This document shows positions 5,100 through 17,475 of a DNA stretch of 24,217 bases, piece after piece. Numbering within the stretch: the stretch's first letter is position 1; each line of letters opens with the position of its first letter. The position numbers and the translations under genes were made by a program. The DNA comes from Myxococcales bacterium (lineage in GTDB: Bacteria > Myxococcota_A > UBA9042 > JABWCM01 > BTVJ01). Under the pieces are notes generated by a model that was not told the DNA's origin, did not search any database, and worked only from the letters and a program-made list of their open reading frames with translations. The stretch spans positions 1 through 24,217 of the forward strand of contig BTVJ01000104.1 of assembly GCA_045863395.1 (NCBI GenBank), written 5' to 3'.

Positions 5100-6266
5100 A
5101 TGCGGGAGGCGACGCGGGTTTCGGCCCTCTACTTCTTCTTCTTCACGTTCCTGGGGATCTACGCCCCGTTCGCGAGCCCCTACTACGCCTCGCTTGGCCT
5201 CTCGGGGCCCGAGATGGGCATCATCGGCGCCGTCCTGCCCATCGCGGCGGCCTTCATTCCCCCGCTCTGGGGCGCCATCGCCGACCGGCTGGGGCAGACC
5301 ACCCGCCCGCTTCAGGTGGCTCTCTGGGGCGCCTGCGTGATGCTCCTCCCGTTCCCCTTCGCCCGGACCTTCGCGCCGCTCTTCGCCGTGCTCGTCGGCT
5401 ACGGCCTCTTCAGGAACGGCATCGTCCCGCTGCTCGACAGCCTCACCCTGACGCTCACGGAGCGCATCGGCGGGGAGTATGGCCGCATCCGGTCGTGGGG
5501 CAGCATCGGCTTCCTCGTCGCCAGCGTCGCCGTCGCGTTCGCCGCCGACGCCGGGTGGCAGGGCGCCGTCGTCTGGGGGATGGTCGGGACCCAGCTCGTC
5601 GCGGCGCTGGCGTCGGTGGGGCTCCCGCGCGCTCCACGCGATCGGGCGTCGAACCTGATCGCGGACCTGCGGGAGCTCCTGACCCGCCCCCTCTTCATCC
5701 GCCTGCTCGTCGTGTCGGCGCTGGTGCAGGTCGGCTCCTTCGGCCCCCTGTTCTTCTACCCCACCCACATGCGCGAGCTGGGGCTGTCCAACGTGCTGCT
5801 CGGCGCCTTCTGGTGGACGGGCGTGCTCGCCGAGGTGGTGCTCTTCCGGGTCGCGCCGCGGGTCATCGCTCGCATCGGGCTCGGCGCTCTGTTCGTCCTC
5901 TCTCCGCTCACGACGGCCACCCGGTGGGCCGTCCCGCTCGTGACCGACCTTCCATGGGTCGTCATCGCCGCCCAGTCACTGCACGCCCTCAGCTTTGGCG
6001 GGCTGTACTACGCCGCCGTGACCTGGCTCGCCCAGGCGGTCCCTCTGCGGCTGCGTGCGAGCGGGCAGTCCCTCTATGCGGCGGTCGCCTTCGGCATCGG
6101 CGGAGGCTTCTCGACCCTGGTCAGCGGGTGGATCGTCGAGTCCTGGCACATCGAGGGTGTGCTCTGGCTGGGCGTCGCAGCCTCTCTCGCGGCGCTGGCG
6201 CTCTGCCGCCCCGTGGTGGCCGTCATGCAGCGGAGTGGCGTCGAAGTGGCGGGCCATCGCTCGTAG
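5100..6266 (+). CDS. MFS transporter (MFS_1_like / HcaT-like)
   Basis: Hydrophobic multi-TM protein. LYFFFF..LGIYAPF N-terminus, PPLWGAIADRLG (motif A), YGRIRSWGSIGF, QSLHALSFG. GAGG upstream of ATG 5100. Confidence 0.9.
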   Translation: MREATRVSALYFFFFTFLGIYAPFASPYYASLGLSGPEMGIIGAVLPIAAAFIPPLWGAIADRLGQTTRPLQVALWGACVMLLPFPFARTFAPLFAVLVGYGLFRNGIVPLLDSLTLTLTERIGGEYGRIRSWGSIGFLVASVAVAFAADAGWQGAVVWGMVGTQLVAALASVGLPRAPRDRASNLIADLRELLTRPLFIRLLVVSALVQVGSFGPLFFYPTHMRELGLSNVLLGAFWWTGVLAEVVLFRVAPRVIARIGLGALFVLSPLTTATRWAVPLVTDLPWVVIAAQSLHALSFGGLYYAAVTWLAQAVPLRLRASGQSLYAAVAFGIGGGFSTLVSGWIVESWHIEGVLWLGVAASLAALALCRPVVAVMQRSGVEVAGHRS

Positions 6267-6291
6267 CACAAAAGTGTGCGACACTCCGCTC

Positions 6292-7920
6292 GTGGCAGCG
6301 AACAGACAGAGTCGCGTGCGCAGCGTGCTCGTCCGGCATGGGGCCCGCGTCGTCGGCGTGGTCGTGGCGCTGTTCGTCGTGGGGGTGCTGTTCCTGAGCG
6401 CCCACGTCGCGGCCCTGCGCCGCTCGCTGGAGGCCCACGTGGGTGGCCTGCGCGCCGCCCAGGCGGTGCAGCGGGCGCTGGTCTCCGGCGGCCCCACCGA
6501 GGAGCGGTCTCGCGCCCTGTCGGAGCTTCGGTTCGCCCTGGCACAGATCCCGGACCGCGCCCCCACAGTGAATACGGCTGCGGCGAGGCTGGGGGTCATC
6601 ACGACGCCGGGCACCTCCAGCGCGGAGCAAGCGGATGCGCTCGATGGTCTCGTCTCTGCCTTGCGCGAGGCGTCGAGCGCCATCTCCCACCGGCTGGGCG
6701 CCACCTGGACCTGGTTGGCCGCCTACGCGGTGGCGGCGATCCTGCTGGCGGGGCTCGCGTGGTGGCTCTCGCGGCAGATCCAGCGAGCGCGGCTGCGCGC
6801 CGAGGAGCTCTACGCGTCGCTCCAGGCGGAGACCGCCAGCAGGCTGGCCGCACAAGAGCAGCGCCAGGCCTACGAGCGCCTCCTCGACCAGGTCATCGAG
6901 CACGCGCCCGTGGCCATCGCCATCCACGGCGACGACGGGCGGCTCTTGCGCCGCAACCCGGAGCACGAGCGGCTGTTCGGCGGCGCCCGCGGGCCCATCG
7001 AGGCGCTCGACCGGGCCCGCCGGGGAGTGGCGACGGCGGGCGAGGAGCACGTCGTCCAACGGCCCGGGGTCCCCGCGCTCGTCGTAGAGCTGGCGGCTGC
7101 GCCCGTCCCCGGGGCCGGCGGCGTCGAGTCGGTCGTGCTCTTCGCCCGGGACGTGACTGAGGTGCGCAGGCGCCAGCAGCAGGCGTGGGCCGAAGATCGC
7201 GCCACCATGGTCGCCACCATGGCGCGGGGAATGGGCCACGAGCTGCGCAACCCGCTGACCTTCGTGCTCGGCAACATCGACTGGCTCCTCGACGAGGTCA
7301 CCCACGCCGAGGGCCTGTCGGAGGAGACCCGCCGCACCTGGGAGCAGGCGCTCGTCGACATGGCAGACGGCGCGGCGCGGCTCCGGGGCGCTGCCTCGGA
7401 TCTCGGCGCTCTCGGCGGTCACGGGGCCACGGGGAGGTGCGATCCGCGCGAGGCCGTGCGCCTCGCTGCCCGCCTCGTTCCAGAGCTGGGCGAGGTCGCC
7501 CGCGTGGCCGTGGAGCCCGGCCGGGCCCCCCTGGTGCGGGGGAGCCTGGCGCACGTCGCCTTGGTGATCTCCGATGTGCTGCGCCGAGTGGCCGCGCTGC
7601 TCGGCGCCTCCGGCGGCGACTGGCTGGTGCGGGTCGGGTGTGAGCCCGACGGGGACGGGGCGCGCGTGCAGGTCACGGCGGAGGCGGACGCGGCCCGAGA
7701 GGAGCTGTCCGGCCCGTCTCTCTCCCCCGATGCGGCGGAGCGCGCCTTCGGGGCGACACCGAGCGCCACGGTGGCTCCCGTGAGCGGCCTGCTCTCCCAT
7801 CTGGGCGCGACCCTCGAGGCCGTCGTCGTCCGGGGTGCACTGAGCGTCCACATCGGGCTCGGGGCGCCGGACGCGGAGGCGCCTGCCGGAGACCCGGCAC
7901 CCAGCGGATCGCGCACGTAG
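6292..7920 (+). CDS. Membrane sensor with PAS-like and HisKA domains; catalytic HATPase domain degenerate
   Basis: Two hydrophobic segments. PAS-like stretch (IEHAPVAIAIHGDDGRLLRRNP...FARDVTE). H-box GMGHELRNPL (His codon 7237). No recognisable N/G1/G2 boxes. GTG 6292 start is inferred. Confidence 0.75.
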   Translation: MAANRQSRVRSVLVRHGARVVGVVVALFVVGVLFLSAHVAALRRSLEAHVGGLRAAQAVQRALVSGGPTEERSRALSELRFALAQIPDRAPTVNTAAARLGVITTPGTSSAEQADALDGLVSALREASSAISHRLGATWTWLAAYAVAAILLAGLAWWLSRQIQRARLRAEELYASLQAETASRLAAQEQRQAYERLLDQVIEHAPVAIAIHGDDGRLLRRNPEHERLFGGARGPIEALDRARRGVATAGEEHVVQRPGVPALVVELAAAPVPGAGGVESVVLFARDVTEVRRRQQQAWAEDRATMVATMARGMGHELRNPLTFVLGNIDWLLDEVTHAEGLSEETRRTWEQALVDMADGAARLRGAASDLGALGGHGATGRCDPREAVRLAARLVPELGEVARVAVEPGRAPLVRGSLAHVALVISDVLRRVAALLGASGGDWLVRVGCEPDGDGARVQVTAEADAAREELSGPSLSPDAAERAFGATPSATVAPVSGLLSHLGATLEAVVVRGALSVHIGLGAPDAEAPAGDPAPSGSRT

Positions 7921-7954
7921 ACCACCCCCGGTCACCCGATCTACCATGCCGCCC

Positions 7955-9331
7955 ATGATCGAGGCCCTCGGACGCACGCTCCACCGCCTGGCGACCCGCC
8001 TGATGCCCGACCCCTTCGTGCTGGCAGTGGGCCTGACGCTCGTGGTGCTCGCGCTGGGAGTGCTGTTCGGAGACGCCCTGGCCGTGGGTTCCCTCGCCGA
8101 CCGCTTCAGCGCGACCCTCCTCGGGTGGAGGTCCTACCTGTTCGACCCCCGCCGGCCCGACGGCTCCGTGGTCGAGGGCTACCTCTACTTCGCGTTCCAG
8201 ATGTGCCTGGTGCTGGTCACGGGCCACGCGCTCGCCACCTCGCGGCCCGTCGGGCGTGCGCTCGGCGCCCTCGCGCGGCTCCCCCGCTCCGGGGCCGCCG
8301 CCTCGGCGACGGTCGCCCTGATCGCGTGCGCCCTGGCGCTGGTCCACTGGGGGCTCGGGCTCATCGGGGGCGCGCTCGTCGCCCGCGAGGCCGGTCGCCA
8401 GCTCCTGCGCCGGGGGGTCCCAGCCCACTACCCGCTCATCGGAGCCGCCGGCTACACGGGCCTCATGGTGTGGGGCGGCGGCCTGAGCGGCTCCATCCCG
8501 CTGAAGGCCATCGACTACCGCTCTGACATCCTGGCCGACGGCGTCCCGCTCTCCTTGACCCTGTGGAGCCCGCTCAACCTGACCGTCTGCGCGATGCTCC
8601 TGGTGCTGGTGCCGGTGCTCGCGTGGGCGCTGCACCCCAAGGAGGGCTGCGTCCCCTACGCCGGCCCCCTGGACGACCGCTCTGACGAGGAGCCGGCGAG
8701 TGAGGGCCGCTCCCCCGTCGTCGTGTGGCTGGAGTGCAGCCGCGCGCCGGCGCTGGTCCTCGCGGTCCTCGGCTTCGGCGCCGTCGCCCTCGACGCCTGG
8801 CGCGGCACCTTCCGCCTCGATCTGAACTCGCTGAACGTGATCTTCCTCTTCGCCGGCATCGCGGCCCAGGGCTCCCTCCTCCGCTACGTGCGCGCAGTGT
8901 CCGACGGCGTGGCGGGTTGTGCCGGCATCGTGCTCCAGTTCCCGTTCTACTTCGGCATCCTGGGCATCCTGCTGGTGACGGGGCTCGGTGCCCAGGTGAG
9001 CCGCGCCATGGCGGCCGCCAGCTCCGAGGCCACGTACCCGCTCCTCACCTTCCTCAGCGCCGGCCTCGTCAACCTGTTCGTGCCGAGCGGCGGCGGGCAG
9101 TGGATCATCCAAGGGGACATCGTCATCGGCGGGGCCGGCCAGGACCCCGCGCTCATCGGCAGGGCGGTCATGGCGCTTGCCTACGGGGATGGGTGGACCA
9201 ACATGCTCCAGCCCTTCTGGGCGCTGCCCCTGCTCGGCATCCTGGGGTTGCGCGCCCGCGACATCATGGGCTACACGGCAGCCATCATGATAGTGAGCGG
9301 CGGCGCCATCCTGCTCGCCCTCTGGCTCTGA
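7955..9331 (+). CDS. atoE: AtoE/TIGR00366-family short-chain fatty acid transporter
   Basis: Family motifs MPDPFV, VPSGGGQW, YGDGWTNMLQPFWALPLLGI, RDIMGY. Start is 7946 or 7955. Confidence 0.85.
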   Translation: MIEALGRTLHRLATRLMPDPFVLAVGLTLVVLALGVLFGDALAVGSLADRFSATLLGWRSYLFDPRRPDGSVVEGYLYFAFQMCLVLVTGHALATSRPVGRALGALARLPRSGAAASATVALIACALALVHWGLGLIGGALVAREAGRQLLRRGVPAHYPLIGAAGYTGLMVWGGGLSGSIPLKAIDYRSDILADGVPLSLTLWSPLNLTVCAMLLVLVPVLAWALHPKEGCVPYAGPLDDRSDEEPASEGRSPVVVWLECSRAPALVLAVLGFGAVALDAWRGTFRLDLNSLNVIFLFAGIAAQGSLLRYVRAVSDGVAGCAGIVLQFPFYFGILGILLVTGLGAQVSRAMAAASSEATYPLLTFLSAGLVNLFVPSGGGQWIIQGDIVIGGAGQDPALIGRAVMALAYGDGWTNMLQPFWALPLLGILGLRARDIMGYTAAIMIVSGGAILLALWL

Positions 9332-9351
9332 CCCCCTTGGAGGAGGCCCCC

Positions 9352-9741
9352 ATGTCACGCGTGACCCTCAGCACCCCCGACGCTCCGGCCGCCATCGGCC
9401 CCTACGCACAAGCCATCGCGGTGAGCGCCCGTGAGCTGGTGTTCCTCAGCGGCCAGGTGGGCATCGATCCCGCCACCGGCGCCCTCGTGGACGGCGGCCT
9501 CGAGGCGCAGGCGCGCCAGGTCATGCGCAACCTGGGCGCGGTGCTCTCCGCGGCGAGCCTCACCTTCGACGACGTGGTCCGCTGTACGGTCTACCTGACC
9601 GATCTGGAGCAGTTCGGCACGGTCAACGCCATCTACGGCTCCTTCTTCTCGGCCGGGCGCGTCCCCGCGCGCGCGACCATCCAGGTGAGCCGCCTGCCCA
9701 AGGACGCGCTCGTCGAGATCGACGCCATCGCCGCGCGCTGA
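9352..9741 (+). CDS. ridA: RidA/YjgF/UK114 reactive intermediate deaminase (129 aa)
   Basis: [53 protein letters not shown] with conserved Arg and Glu. GGAGGAGG upstream. Confidence 0.95.
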   Translation: MSRVTLSTPDAPAAIGPYAQAIAVSARELVFLSGQVGIDPATGALVDGGLEAQARQVMRNLGAVLSAASLTFDDVVRCTVYLTDLEQFGTVNAIYGSFFSAGRVPARATIQVSRLPKDALVEIDAIAAR

Positions 9742-9745
9742 TCGC
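9594..9745 (+). repeat. ridA 3'-end direct repeat, copy A (within intact ridA)
   Basis: Direct comparison with 11917..12068 and 14240..14394. Confidence 0.95.
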
Positions 9746-9773
9746 GGCCCTGTGAATGTTGCTCCGCTCCTCG

Positions 9774-9812
9774 TATGATGCCCTGGTCGAGCGGCCGGGT
9801 TGCAGGAGGAGG
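9774..9812 (+). promoter_or_regulatory. -10-like TATGAT and GGAGGAGG RBS for the duplicated lipoprotein (repeated at 12097..12135)
   Basis: TATGAT 9774-9779, RBS 9805-9812; -35 match is weak. Confidence 0.45.
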
Positions 9813-9818
9813 GGCGTG

Positions 9819-11921
9819 ATGAGCCGGTGCTTCGCGGTGGTGGTCATTGTCGCTGCGTGTGCCGTCGAGAGCACCCAGCCGGGCGGAGCGGGCGACTGCT
9901 CGGGGTGCGCGGACGCGACGCTGGACACGCGAGGCGACGCGGGCGTCGCCCACGATGCGGTGCCGGGGGACATCGACGGTGTGGCTCTGCCCGATGTGGC
10001 TGCCGACGCGCCCGAGCCTCCCGACGCTGCCGATGTCTCGCAGGCGCCCGATGCCCCCGACGCGCTCGAGCCCCTCACCGAGTGCCCGGACTCTTGGCTG
10101 AAGGGTGGAGAGGCGTGCGTCGGGCCTCTCGGCTGCACCTACGGCAAGGAGTGCTGCTGCGGCCAGTGCGACGTGTCGCTCTCCTGTTCCTGCACCTCCG
10201 GCAAGATGTCGTGCTACTACACGGACTTCTGCATGGGCCGGTTCTGCTCGGACGGCTGCCCGAACCAGACGATCACGACCCCGCTCGGCTGCACGTCGTG
10301 CAAGGACGCCTACGGCGGCGTGCACGCAGCGCTCCAGGAGCTCGCGGACTCCGCCGGCGGCTGCCAGACCGATGCAGACTGCCAGCTCGCGAAGGTCGCT
10401 ACCAACTGTGGTCCTGTCTGCAAGCTCGGGGTCGTGAAGACCGGGCGCGACGTCCTGGAGGCGAGCGCGCCGGCGATCAATAAGGCGTGGTGCGCGCAGG
10501 GCGGCCTGTGCGACGGCCTCCCCCCCTTCATCGAGGGCTACTGGGAGCAGCCCGCATGCCAGCCGGCCGGGTACGCCCGTTGCGACGAGGGACAGTGCCG
10601 CTTCGCCGTCCCGTGTGACCCGGCGGTGCAGGAGGTGGGTTCGGCCTGCGACGACGGCGACGCCTGCACGCTCGGCGACACCTGCACGGAGCCCTTCGTC
10701 TGCACCGGCGCGCCGGCCGACTGCGACGACGGCGATGTCTGCACCGACGACTCGTGCGACCCGGCCACCGGCTGCGCGCACACCGAGAACAGCGCCGCCT
10801 GCACGGGCTTCGAGGGGGCGTGCTCGGTCGGCGGCCAGTGCGTCGCCGGCGAGTGCCAGGCCAGCCCCGTGCCGGGCTTCACCCGGGAGTATCCGGGCCC
10901 GCACCGCGTGGTGTCCGCGGTCGACGTCGTGCCGGGCGGGGCGCTCGTGCTGGCCGGAGCTGTGGCGAGCGCGACACCCGACAAGGGCTTCGTCCTCCGC
11001 GTCGCCCCCACCGGCGAGCAGCTCGGGGCACCGCTCGCGGTGCTCGCGGCCGTGACGGACGTGGTCGCGTTCGAGGACGGCGGCCTGCTCGTGGCCGGCG
11101 AGGTGCTCGGGCAGAAGGACATCGCCTTGACGCGCATGGACCCCGGGGACGAGGCGCTGTGGACGGGGTTCATCGAGACCCCGGGAGCGGACCTCATGCC
11201 TCGGCTCGCCGCCCACCCGAGCGGAACGACCGCGGTGGTCTGGAGCAAGTCCGCGGCGACCCGCGTCGCGACCATCAGCGCCGCGGGCGAGATCGGACCC
11301 TCCGCGTCCCTCGGGATCCCCTCCGACCAGGGCTCCTGGCCGGGGGTCGACGGCTGGCCGCGCATCGCCCCGACCGCGAGCGGCTTCGCCGTGCTGCACA
11401 CCTCGCCGACCTGGTCCGGAGAGGCGCGGACCAAGGTGTCCCTCGTGGACCTGACGGGCACCCTGACCCACTCGTTCGTGCTCAAGTCCTCCGGGCCCGA
11501 GCGCCCGCGCGGGATTCTCTGGTTGACGGGCGACGTGCTCATCGCGTGGGGTGTGCGCGGCACCGGCGCTGACGCGGTCCGCTGGGTGCGCCGCCTGACG
11601 ATGGCGGGCCAGCAGATGTGGGAGCACGTGGGTCCCGACGAGGAGGTCGCCCCGTGGAACGCGGTCGCTCTGTGGACGCACGGGACTGCGGCGGACGGCC
11701 TGCCGCGGCTCGCGAACCTGCGGATCGACACGGGTGAGGAGGTCTGGTCGCAGGTTCTGCCGCCTGCCGGCGTCGTCGTGGTCGACTCCGTACTCGTCCC
11801 GGACGGGATCGCGCTGGCTGGCACTCGCTTTACCAGCGGGTGGGGCACGCCCTGGCTTCGCCGCACGTCGTGGGTCCAGGACTGTGATGGCGGCGTCTGC
11901 CCACCTCCTGGCTGCCCCTGA
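9819..11921 (+). CDS. Cys-rich lipoprotein (700 aa), copy 1: CTDC-like repeats and probable beta-rich C-terminal domain
   Basis: [14 protein letters not shown] lipobox-like, Asp-rich linker, ECCCGQC module, [10 protein letters not shown] / [18 protein letters not shown] repeats, strong RBS. Confidence 0.85.
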
Positions 11922-12068
11922 CCAATCTGGAGCAGCTCGGCACGGTCAACGCCATCTACGGCTCCTTCTTCTCGGCCGGGCGCGTCCCCGCGCGCGCGAC
12001 CATCCAGGTGAGCCGCCTGCCCAAGGACGCGCTCGTCGAGATCGACGCCATCGCCGCGCGCTGATCGC
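11917..12068 (+). pseudogene. ridA 3' fragment, copy B (recombinant: 5' alleles of C, 3' alleles of A)
   Basis: Encodes [14 protein letters not shown]...VEIDAIAAR* with no start. Matches C at 11924 and 11936; matches A at 11974, 12013 and the stop. Confidence 0.9.
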
Positions 12069-12141
12069 GGCCCTGTGAATGTTGCTCCGCTCCTCGTATG
12101 ATGCCCTGGTCGAGCGGCCGGGTTGCAGGAGGAGGGGCGTG

Positions 12142-14244
12142 ATGAGCCGGTGCTTCGCGGTGGTGGTCATTGTCGCTGCGTGTGCCGTCGAGAGCACCCA
12201 GCCGGGCGGAGCGGGCGACTGCTCGGGGTGCGCGGACGCGACGCTGGACACGCGAGGCGACGCGGGCGTCGCCCACGATGCGGTGCCGGGGGACATCGAC
12301 GGTGTGGCTCTGCCCGATGTGGCTGCCGACGCGCCCGAGCCTCCCGACGCTGCCGATGTCTCGCAGGCGCCCGATGCCCCCGACGCGCTCGAGCCCCTCA
12401 CCGAGTGCCCGGACTCTTGGCTGAAGGGTGGAGAGGCGTGCGTCGGGCCTCTCGGCTGCACCTACGGCAAGGAGTGCTGCTGCGGCCAGTGCGACGTGTC
12501 GCTCTCCTGTTCCTGCACCTCCGGCAAGATGTCGTGCTACTACACGGACTTCTGCATGGGCCGGTTCTGCTCGGACGGCTGCCCGAACCAGACGATCACG
12601 ACCCCGCTCGGCTGCACGTCGTGCAAGGACGCCTACGGCGGCGTGCACGCAGCGCTCCAGGAGCTCGCGGACTCCGCCGGCGGCTGCCAGACCGATGCAG
12701 ACTGCCAGCTCGCGAAGGTCGCTACCAACTGTGGTCCTGTCTGCAAGCTCGGGGTCGTGAAGACCGGGCGCGACGTCCTGGAGGCGAGCGCGCCGGCGAT
12801 CAATAAGGCGTGGTGCGCGCAGGGCGGCCTGTGCGACGGCCTCCCCCCCTTCATCGAGGGCTACTGGGAGCAGCCCGCATGCCAGCCGGCCGGGTACGCC
12901 CGTTGCGACGAGGGACAGTGCCGCTTCGCCGTCCCGTGTGACCCGGCGGTGCAGGAGGTGGGTTCGGCCTGCGACGACGGCGACGCCTGCACGCTCGGCG
13001 ACACCTGCACGGAGCCCTTCGTCTGCACCGGCGCGCCGGCCGACTGCGACGACGGCGATGTCTGCACCGACGACTCGTGCGACCCGGCCACCGGCTGCGC
13101 GCACACCGAGAACAGCGCCGCCTGCACGGGCTTCGAGGGGGCGTGCTCGGTCGGCGGCCAGTGCGTCGCCGGCGAGTGCCAGGCCAGCCCCGTGCCGGGC
13201 TTCACCCGGGAGTATCCGGGCCCGCACCGCGTGGTGTCCGCGGTCGACGTCGTGCCGGGCGGGGCGCTCGTGCTGGCCGGAGCTGTGGCGAGCGCGACAC
13301 CCGACAAGGGCTTCGTCCTCCGCGTCGCCCCCACCGGCGAGCAGCTCGGGGCACCGCTCGCGGTGCTCGCGGCCGTGACGGACGTGGTCGCGTTCGAGGA
13401 CGGCGGCCTGCTCGTGGCCGGCGAGGTGCTCGGGCAGAAGGACATCGCCTTGACGCGCATGGACCCCGGGGACGAGGCGCTGTGGACGGGGTTCATCGAG
13501 ACCCCGGGAGCGGACCTCATGCCTCGGCTCGCCGCCCACCCGAGCGGAACGACCGCGGTGGTCTGGAGCAAGTCCGCGGCGACCCGCGTCGCGACCATCA
13601 GCGCCGCGGGCGAGATCGGACCCTCCGCGTCCCTCGGGATCCCCTCCGACCAGGGCTCCTGGCCGGGGGTCGACGGCTGGCCGCGCATCGCCCCGACCGC
13701 GAGCGGCTTCGCCGTGCTGCACACCTCGCCGACCTGGTCCGGAGAGGCGCGGACCAAGGTGTCCCTCGTGGACCTGACGGGCACCCTGACCCACTCGTTC
13801 GTGCTCAAGTCCTCCGGGCCCGAGCGCCCGCGCGGGATTCTCTGGTTGACGGGCGACGTGCTCATCGCGTGGGGTGTGCGCGGCACCGGCGCTGACGCGG
13901 TCCGCTGGGTGCGCCGCCTGACGATGGCGGGCCAGCAGATGTGGGAGCACGTGGGTCCCGACGAGGAGGTCGCCCCGTGGAACGCGGTCGCTCTGTGGAC
14001 GCACGGGACTGCGGCGGACGGCCTGCCGCGGCTCGCGAACCTGCGGATCGACACGGGTGAGGAGGTCTGGTCGCAGGTTCTGCCGCCTGCCGGCGTCGTC
14101 GTGGTCGACTCCGTACTCGTCCCGGACGGGATCGCGCTGGCTGGCACTCGCTTTACCAGCGGGTGGGGCACGCCCTGGCTTCGCCGCACGTCGTGGGTCC
14201 AGGACTGTGATGGCGGCGTCTGCCCACCTCCTGGCTGCCCCTGA
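12142..14244 (+). CDS. Cys-rich lipoprotein (700 aa), copy 2, identical translation to copy 1
   Basis: Identical ORF translation at +2323. Confidence 0.85.
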
Positions 14245-14394
14245 CCAATCTGGAGCAGCTCGGCACGGTCAACGCCATCTACGGCTCCTTCTTCTCAGCC
14301 GGGCGCGTCCCCGCGCGCGCGACCATCCAGGTGAGTCGCCTGCCCAAGGACGCGCTCGTCGAGATCGACGCCATCGCCGCGCGCATTTGATCGC
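14240..14394 (+). pseudogene. ridA 3' fragment, copy C (ends AARI*)
   Basis: Differs from A by 4 substitutions plus an extra ATT codon before TGA. Confidence 0.9.
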
Positions 14395-14423: not shown

Positions 14424-15536
14424 ATGAAGCGGACAATCCTCGCGCTCGCCCTCCTCGTGTCCTCGGCCGCCGCTGCGGGGCCGCGGGACCTCGTCATCGC
14501 CCTGGGCGGGGACGTGTCCTTCCACCACGGGTGGTTCAACGCCAAGCTCGACAAGGTGGGCGAGTCCCCGGGGCCGTTTTCGCTCATCCAGAGCTACCTG
14601 GACGAGGCGGACCTGCGATTCCTGAACCTGGAGGCGCCGGTCACCGAGGGCTCGGCGGTCATCAAGAAGACCTACAGCCTCGCCATGCCGCCTCACCGCC
14701 TCGCGTGGATCGTCAAGGCCGGCTTCAACCTCATCTCGCTCGCCAACAACCACACGGCCGACGCTGGGGTGGAGGGGCTTGCCGCGACCATCGCCAACCT
14801 GCAGAAGGTGCGGGACGGGGGCACAGACCTGTGGTGGGCCGGCGCCGACCCCGACGCGAGCAAGGCCGACGCGGTCACGTACCTCACCCCGGAGGGCAAG
14901 GAGCTGAAGGTGGCGTTTCTCGCCTTCGGCAACAACCGGGCCCCGGAGGTCGCAAGCTTCTGGGGCAAGCGCGTTACGGAGCGCGTCAAGGAGGCGCGCG
15001 CATCGGCTGACCTGGTCCTGGTCTCGATCCATGCGGGCAAGGAGTACGATCACGTCGCAGAGCCGGACCTGGCGCGGCGCTACCGGGGCCTCATCGACGC
15101 GGGCGCCGACGTGATCATCGGCCACCACCCCCACGTGGTCCGCGGAGTCGAGCGGTACAAGCACGGCGTGATCCTCTACAGCCTCGGCAACCTGTCGTTC
15201 GCTTCCTTCACCGTGCGCCACCACGAGACGGGCGCGAAGATGTGGGGCATGCTCCCCATGGTGTACGTGACCGACGGGAAGCTCTCGCGGCTGCGGATCG
15301 TGCCCCTGTGGGTGAGCCACAACGAGAAGCTGGTGGTGGAGGGGGAGCCCGCGCTCCCGCCGACGCCGTTCCAGCCACAGCCCCTGACCGGCGGCCACGC
15401 GCGCGCGGCGCTCGACGCCTTCCAGCGCTTCAGCGACGCCGTGGAGGGCAACGCGACGCGCCTCGCCATCGACGGGGACGAGGCGAACCTGGATCTCACC
15501 GGATCCGCCGGGGGCAGTGGGGCCGCTTCACCGTGA
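14424..15536 (+). CDS. CapA/PGA_cap family secreted metallophosphoesterase-fold protein
   Basis: Signal peptide. Motifs GGDV, NLE, ISLANNH..DAG, HAGKEY, IIGHHPHV, YSLGN. Confidence 0.9.
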   Translation: MKRTILALALLVSSAAAAGPRDLVIALGGDVSFHHGWFNAKLDKVGESPGPFSLIQSYLDEADLRFLNLEAPVTEGSAVIKKTYSLAMPPHRLAWIVKAGFNLISLANNHTADAGVEGLAATIANLQKVRDGGTDLWWAGADPDASKADAVTYLTPEGKELKVAFLAFGNNRAPEVASFWGKRVTERVKEARASADLVLVSIHAGKEYDHVAEPDLARRYRGLIDAGADVIIGHHPHVVRGVERYKHGVILYSLGNLSFASFTVRHHETGAKMWGMLPMVYVTDGKLSRLRIVPLWVSHNEKLVVEGEPALPPTPFQPQPLTGGHARAALDAFQRFSDAVEGNATRLAIDGDEANLDLTGSAGGSGAASP

Positions 15537-17187: not shown

Positions 17188-17475
17188 CTACTTGCAGGTG
17201 CCCGAGGAGCACTTCTTTCCGGGGCACTCGCTGTCGAAGCTGCACTTGCCGTCGGGCGCGTTGGAGCACTTGCTGCTGTTGCACTTGGCGCCGCCGCCGC
17301 CGCAGTCGCTGTCGAAGCTGCACTTGCTGCCGGACGCCGTGGCGCACCGCCCGCTGTTGCACTTGACGCCCTTGCCGCAGTCGCTGTCGAAGCTGCAATC
17401 GCCCTCGCCCGCGAGGGCGCTCCCCGCGAGGAACAGGACGGCTGCCAGGGCGCCCAACGAGATTCCGAGCTTCAT
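17188..17475 (-). CDS. Secreted 12-Cys peptide with three CSFDS[DE]C-x4-6-C-x4-C repeats (95 aa)
   Basis: AAGGAG RBS, signal peptide MKLG...GSALA, three 4-Cys repeats visible at both DNA and protein level. Confidence 0.85.
   Translation of the reverse strand: MKLGISLGALAAVLFLAGSALAGEGDCSFDSDCGKGVKCNSGRCATASGSKCSFDSDCGGGGAKCNSSKCSNAPDGKCSFDSECPGKKCSSGTCK

Follow-up and report, generated by a model that had tools for sequence, protein, structure and literature searches.

The ridA-capA locus

The window is the whole 24,217-nt contig BTVJ01000104.1 of a Myxococcales bacterium (contig C104 of the assembly GCA_045863395.1, here G000). The assembly is 8.77 Mb long, in 186 contigs, 97% complete and with 71% GC. 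The gene order is atoE-like transporter, ridA, lipoprotein, lipoprotein, capA (Table 1). Three copies of the ridA 3' end, named A, B and C and spaced 2323 bp each, bracket the two lipoprotein genes. The lipoprotein gene was inserted together with a duplicated ridA tail and without a recombinase, as the first-pass annotation of this DNA had proposed; the single insertion is real. The favoured account is a one-time, recombinase-free 'insertion with long target duplication', to which a loop pass of the assembler added the second lipoprotein copy. It is considered rather likely.

Table 1. Features of the ridA-capA locus, in positions of the window.
Feature	Position	Strand	Evidence
Short-chain fatty acid transporter (AtoE-like), upstream flank	7946..9331	+	PF02667, E 1.9e-105
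Intact ridA, 129 aa, C-terminal AAR	9352..9741	+	PF01042, E 6.9e-39; TIGR00004 above cut-off
Copy A, ridA tail from the third base of codon 81 to 4 nt beyond the stop, without the native ATT	9594..9745	+	
37-bp block identical in A, B and C; B switches from C-type to A-type inside it	9614..9650	+	
AGGAGG, ribosome-binding-like, 9 nt 5' of the lipoprotein ATG (9819)	9804..9809	+	Read from sequence
Predicted lipoprotein, 700 aa	9819..11921	+	PF00526 (Dicty_CTDC repeat)
Copy B, C-left plus A-right; second-pass junction, probably an assembly loop	11917..12068	+	
Second lipoprotein copy, letter-identical; not supported by depth	12142..14244	+	
Copy C, displaced native ridA tail, ending ATT-TGA (read as AARI)	14240..14394	+	
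CapA/PGA_cap family gene, downstream flank	14424..15536	+	PF09587, E 8.6e-54

Copies A and C form a direct repeat of 152/155 bp (95.5% identity), and both end in TGATCGC. Copy C differs from A by D84N and F88L and by two silent changes. Copy B differs from A (offset 2323) only at 9601 (G/A) and 9613 (T/C). From C it differs only at the equivalents of 9651 (G/A) and 9690 (C/T) and by the extra ATT of C. Base by base, the comparison confirms the mosaic described at first, C-left plus A-right with the switch inside 9614-9650. Positions 9614-11973 are identical to 11937-14296 over 2360 bp; no exact duplication on the same strand is longer anywhere in the assembly. The ridA tail occurs in the assembly as the three window copies only and belongs to no genomic repeat family.

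A scan of 11 window proteins gave no match to any recombinase family, in agreement with the first-pass annotation, and the tyrosine and serine recombinase matches of the genome are all on contigs other than that of the window.

The site without insert is represented by P0002, the second member of the RidA cluster, which carries the A-left residues D84 and F88 together with the AARI end that C encodes. P0002 ends in AARI, and the end of C is therefore the native ridA end. P0002, a sister AtoE (P0010) and a sister CapA (P0008) each have a longest contig of 9296 and are inferred to lie on one contig. The empty site first postulated is probably present in a sister lineage, where it is seen as a RidA protein with the AARI end only. 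The 40 relatives compared are all from outside the family and genus of this bacterium; the best matches are ~70% in pieces, and no same-genus empty site is readable. The exact 30-nt core gave 0 matches in metagenome contigs. The atoE-like gene is also found directly 5' of ridA in the class relatives G033 and G038.

The predicted lipoprotein has a Cys-rich region and a Cys14 that is conserved in homologues. Its C-terminus is a predicted beta-propeller (Atlas matches at TM ~0.8 to propeller-type clusters, both sides being predicted models). Its stop and most of its last codon are supplied by the ridA repeat, read in another frame. Homologues P0011 and P0012 (64% and 43% identical) end in GCAAE and GCAE, the window protein in GCP; by alignment with these the window protein is clipped by 2-3 C-terminal residues. 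The left junction is an apparent illegitimate join inside the cargo gene and no natural gene end. A junction that cuts into the cargo speaks against the reusable docking site that had been suggested. The family is tiny: there were 3 matches in one search, 2 below 1e-30 in another, and ~three clusters collection-wide. A degenerate motif of the lipoprotein C-terminus gave 0 matches in genome contigs. Positions 11853-11918 encode 22 C-terminal residues that are invariant among homologues otherwise 43-64% identical.

Of the expression signals ascribed to the unit, the AGGAGG before the ATG is present; a sigma-70 scan of 9300-9900 gave no promoter. No terminator was found in 9300-9900, and an Rfam search gave no match. 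Elsewhere in the window, 17188-17475 (minus strand) encodes a secreted-looking protein of 95 aa with three CSFDSDC-type cysteine repeats.

Copy B and the second lipoprotein copy

A second pass through A-gene-C must leave C in the shared block and enter A, and so gives C-left plus A-right. The same mosaic results alike from unequal crossing-over, from re-entry of a circle or from the loop walk of an assembler. Since any second pass between direct repeats yields it, B marks where the passage occurs and is no mark of an att system. The reading of the three junctions as attL, attP and attR is not upheld.

Residue F88 is invariant in RidA (19/19 proteins) and D84 is present in 16/19. Because D84N and F88L alter conserved residues, the C-left changes look like decay after displacement and not like donor alleles.

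Depth was obtained from contigs of four runs from four studies, placed on 5400-11936. In X1 the flank contig has a depth of 21, the 2258-bp gene contig 17.4 and the 125-bp tail contig 43.5. The gene/flank ratio is 0.83; two gene copies would give ~40 over the gene. The three listed X1 contigs match the window without any letter difference. Flank and gene depths are 8.2-10.2 and 7.5-8.3 in X3, 2.7-4.7 and 3.5-4.8 in X17, and 2.5-5.7 and 2-6.4 in X16. The lipoprotein gene is thus at ~0.8-1x of the flank in 4/4 runs, and the unit is not raised. The two lipoprotein copies are present in the assembly and find no support in depth, and the amplification of a surface-protein gene, also proposed, does not agree with ~1x in every run.

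A single A-gene-C unit predicts a 2258-bp loop at k=31 (2323-125+60). The variant lipoproteins P0004 and P0005 are also on 2258-bp contigs, which indicates that the single unit is common to several strains. Overlaps of contig ends in the assembly peak at 55 (70 matches; no other length >8), and the assembly was therefore built at k=55. Seventeen 55-mers are unique to B, each being a word of C with one base changed. Words unique to B require k of at least 39; the run contigs were built at k=31. Any one of a strain-level variant of C, an erroneous read or a recombinant in the minority would suffice to make the loop. SPAdes-type assemblers may walk a short loop twice. The second lipoprotein copy is probably the assembler's unrolled loop.

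Two candidates in the run data were rejected. An X16 contig linking the gene end to the gene start was considered as evidence of a circle; the shared 48-bp block exceeds k=31. X16 and X17 (word share ~0.5) were considered as empty-site strains; the lipoprotein is covered in both, if only at low depth. A 95% sister is also present in X16, and the change that this sister has at 9023 matches P0010.

The strongest rival holds that the insertion was a one-off, and that the two-copy form is real in most cells, having arisen by RecA-dependent tandem duplication through unequal crossing-over between A and C. It is regarded as unlikely. RecA duplication-amplification between direct repeats leaves a junction that is a hybrid of both repeats, and B is exactly such a hybrid of the flanking repeats. 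The k=55 graph has no loop without B-type words, although one base change in C suffices to produce them. For inserts of this kind, PMC2853133 reports amplification between long direct repeats. Unlike in RecA amplification, depth is not raised here, neither in the likely source run (0.83) nor in the three other studies (~1x).

Tail insertions across the genome

The assembly was compared with itself for low-copy near repeats of at least 45 bp, at least 84% identical and at most 60 kb apart. Direct pairs number 35 and inverted pairs 5. After removal of 5 direct pairs more than 12 kb apart and of 3 extra pieces of counted loci, 27 direct pairs were counted. The stop of an intact gene is contained in 15 of these 27 (all at most 12 kb apart). 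Random placement gives 2.85 +/- 1.6 stop-holding pairs (maximum 8 in 500), or ~6 if each copy counts as a separate try. One of the 15, the C33 pair, is a diversity-generating retroelement (DGR; Avd and reverse transcriptase) and was taken out of the set. In 13/14 of the remaining pairs the order is intact gene, cargo, fragment.

These 13 pairs are at 12 loci, on C1, C7, C17, C22, C23, C27 (twice), C38, C39, C49, C68 and C104, the last being the window. The target genes are unrelated, the repeats are 52 to 748 bp long, and no junction motif shared by the 12 loci was seen by eye. Tyrosine and serine recombinases are absent among 40 cargo proteins of 17 such or similar loci; insertion sequence remnants are present at two of the 17. 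Except for a 38-kb element on C24, the recombinases of the genome are on contigs other than these. Among the cargo proteins are a DNA methylase, toxin-antitoxin pairs, a KAP NTPase, a PHP-ATPase together with a Schlafen protein, and surface proteins. Outside the window, much of the cargo is foreign-looking or defence- or toxin-antitoxin-like (G + C content at third codon positions, GC3, 0.77-0.87). In several pairs all or most of the differences are silent (6/0, 5/0, 4/0, 3/0 and 3/1 synonymous/non-synonymous), a pattern that suggests the working tail of a relative rather than a copied target. In 7 class relatives (1.98 Mb) there are 6 direct pairs at most 12 kb apart, 0 of them with the coding tail of an intact gene; ~2.7 would be expected if the rate were that of the present genome.

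Single loci show further features. At C1:307095-317678 the tail duplication extends over two convergent genes; its first 233 bp are identical, and next to them are a 90% glycosyltransferase piece, eroded 85% pieces of two downstream genes and 6.8 kb of cargo. It is the clearest donor-like segment. At C27:15257-23025 the 748-bp repeat comprises a whole GNAT gene and an SDR tail; its copies are identical over a core of >500 bp and diverge at the ends, the pattern expected of repeated homogenisation. At the second C27 locus (83556-87109) a KAP NTPase and an FGE-sulfatase-domain protein are between the tail repeats, and at C38:40112-44102 a PHP-AAA ATPase and a Schlafen/AlbA_2 protein.

Two other repeat-bearing elements were observed. 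The DGR at C33:45281-52672 has Avd (PF22296, below cut-off) and a reverse transcriptase (PF00078). Its 133-bp template repeat at 52540-52672 matches the 3' end of a 1177-codon gene, and 14/14 changed codons are non-synonymous and adenine-centred. At C2:214298-247960 a 52-bp perfect direct repeat occurs twice, 33.6 kb apart, with a tyrosine integrase beside one copy. The C2 element is a conventional island.

Origin of the insertion

Insertion with a long, variable target duplication and with no other mobile element is described by Furuta et al. 2010 (PMC2853133). Nobusato et al. 2000 is cited for it in PMC3457768 and PMC2853133, and a passage of PMC3457768 recognises the mechanism for restriction-modification (RM) systems 'and other DNAs'. 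In the parts of PMC2853133 concerned with the repeats, these are ~25-420 bp in the tables and often span the start or the stop, leaving the target intact; inserts can amplify, no evidence for release is given there, and the mechanism is only hypothesised. The window locus agrees with the class, as outlined in those parts, in having an insert of <20 kb (one 2.1-kb gene) without a mobility gene, a flanking direct repeat of >30 bp, and a stop-spanning repeat that keeps the target intact, with amplification possible between the repeats. The empty site in a relative, another mark of the class, is seen here as the protein P0002 only. It differs in its lipoprotein cargo, the survey in PMC2853133 being one of RM genes (its supplementary tables may list others). 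It differs also in a host without a ComEC match, the cases in those parts being mostly from naturally competent species, in a junction that clips the cargo, and in a layout that recurs with varied cargo at 12 loci of one genome. RM cargo is a filter of the 2010 survey and not a criterion of the class; the other class features that were tested are found here, the empty site as a protein only. The locus is most likely a modest further example of the described class, here with non-restriction cargo. A literature search gave no relevant myxobacterial description and no paper on assembler loops.

From the observed A-gene-C layout, clipped junction and empty-type protein, a donor, a crossover and a route of entry may be inferred. 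DNA of a close relative, with the ridA tail followed by the lipoprotein gene, would have been joined illegitimately, at the lipoprotein end, to mid-ridA. The incoming DNA would have crossed over by homologous recombination within the ridA tail, a step equivalent to the single integration of an end-joined circle. ridA would have been regenerated upstream, and the native tail pushed downstream before capA to decay there. Insertions would be kept by selection only where the target gene stays whole; this would account for repeats that span stop codons. Between the two tails RecA could, at low frequency, remove the unit or double it, and B would be the junction of such an event. The first-pass annotation had offered a homology-driven or a trans-mobilised cassette; its homology-driven option is close to this course of events, and its att and circle reading is unsupported.

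Homology-facilitated illegitimate recombination usually deletes host DNA, whereas host DNA is duplicated here. The two are alike in combining one homologous crossover with one illegitimate join and no recombinase, as far as the process is outlined in PMC2884548. That outline concerns naturally competent species; in the present genome DprA is present and ComEC is not matched. No Ku match was found in the genome.

Several points weigh against the account of a single insertion and an unrolled loop. The empty site is seen as protein only, its DNA being unseen, and P0002 is from a sister lineage (~95% identical at atoE) and not from the same strain. The 2 silent and 2 non-silent changes at this locus cannot separate a donor tail from a copied target. 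No ComEC match was found in a genome that is 97% complete. Contig depth does not equal copy number, X1 may or may not be the source run, and the depth of the 125-bp tail contig is inconsistent between runs (43.5 in X1, 8.1 in X3). Because A and C have no common word at k=55, B-type words were probably present in the input of the assembler, and a real minority junction is possible. Among the other loci some pairs look neutral (3/9, 6/15), the gene caller was crude, and the set of 12 loci was defined after looking.

That the unit is the remnant of an integrase-borne element targeting ridA, of the e14/icdC or cis-mobilizable element (CIME) type, which lost its integrase, is doubtful. CIMEs are kindred integrative elements with replacement of a 3' end; a replacement tail might lack the native ATT, as copy A does. 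Other such loci (C1, C7 and C27) have been eroded by deletions. The geometry equals that of icd-e14-icdC as sketched in PMC13626634, with an intact gene, cargo and a C-terminal pseudogene fragment, where loss of the insert gives a chimeric gene; domesticated proviruses lose integration genes, according to a passage of PMC13626063. Unlike e14 in that sketch, an integrase-borne prophage, the unit has no phage or integrase gene or remnant, its junction is inside a cargo gene, and ridA is not used recurrently. A displaced 3' ridA tail was found in 0/80 other metagenome ridA loci (41 with at least 2.5 kb downstream), which is evidence against a dedicated ridA dock. The 27-nt core has no exact match in viral contigs (0 matches), the twelve different target genes have no common core motif, and the GC3 of the cargo is native-like (0.91). 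On one metagenome contig (L078:339-419) an 81-bp, 91% copy of the 5' part of ridA is 1.6 kb upstream of an intact ridA; this layout is the 5'-end counterpart of that in the window.

A 2323-bp circle with B as an attP-like junction, which leaves ridA and docks there again, in trans or by homology, and so loads and amplifies surface proteins, is improbable to a high degree. A probable empty site exists in the sister lineage, B-type words are probably in the reads, and in X1 and X3 the gene is slightly less deep than the flank, which a few chromosomes without the insert would produce. Against these stand the junction that cuts into the cargo, the decayed C-left, the lack of excess depth and the absence of other cargo with the same ridA tail from the genome and the 80 loci. 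The X16 end-to-start contig is what a k=31 collapse gives and proves no circle.

Least likely of all is an origin without foreign DNA, in which a large part of the genome was duplicated in tandem, deletions then brought a native lipoprotein gene to lie behind ridA, and the tail is what remained: codon use is native-like, a partial paralogue is present on C171 (71% over 471 bp) and strings of eroded downstream genes are kept at C1 and C7, but the assembly has no second full copy or full-length paralogue elsewhere, and much of the cargo at the other loci is foreign-looking or defence- or toxin-antitoxin-like.

There is a small chance, of the same low order as that of an integrase remnant, that the lineage gains much of its accessory DNA, with genes for surface proteins, defence and toxin-antitoxin systems, as small recombinase-free circles, each with the gene tail of a relative and cargo, which use homology to dock at the end of any housekeeping gene and go on cycling in and out. 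If so, B would show a live circle caught at one moment, and the 12 loci would reflect a general route of gene loading without detectable competence.

For short-read assemblies the locus is a caution: attL/attP/attR-like mosaics arise from any direct-repeat loop, and read-level proof is needed. The part worth keeping is the set of 12 tail insertions and not the att-like junction. Silent-only differences at several of these loci point to donor-derived tails and not to copied targets. With ~12 recombinase-free gene-tail insertions and varied non-restriction cargo in one genome, this bacterium provides a ready test set for the class.

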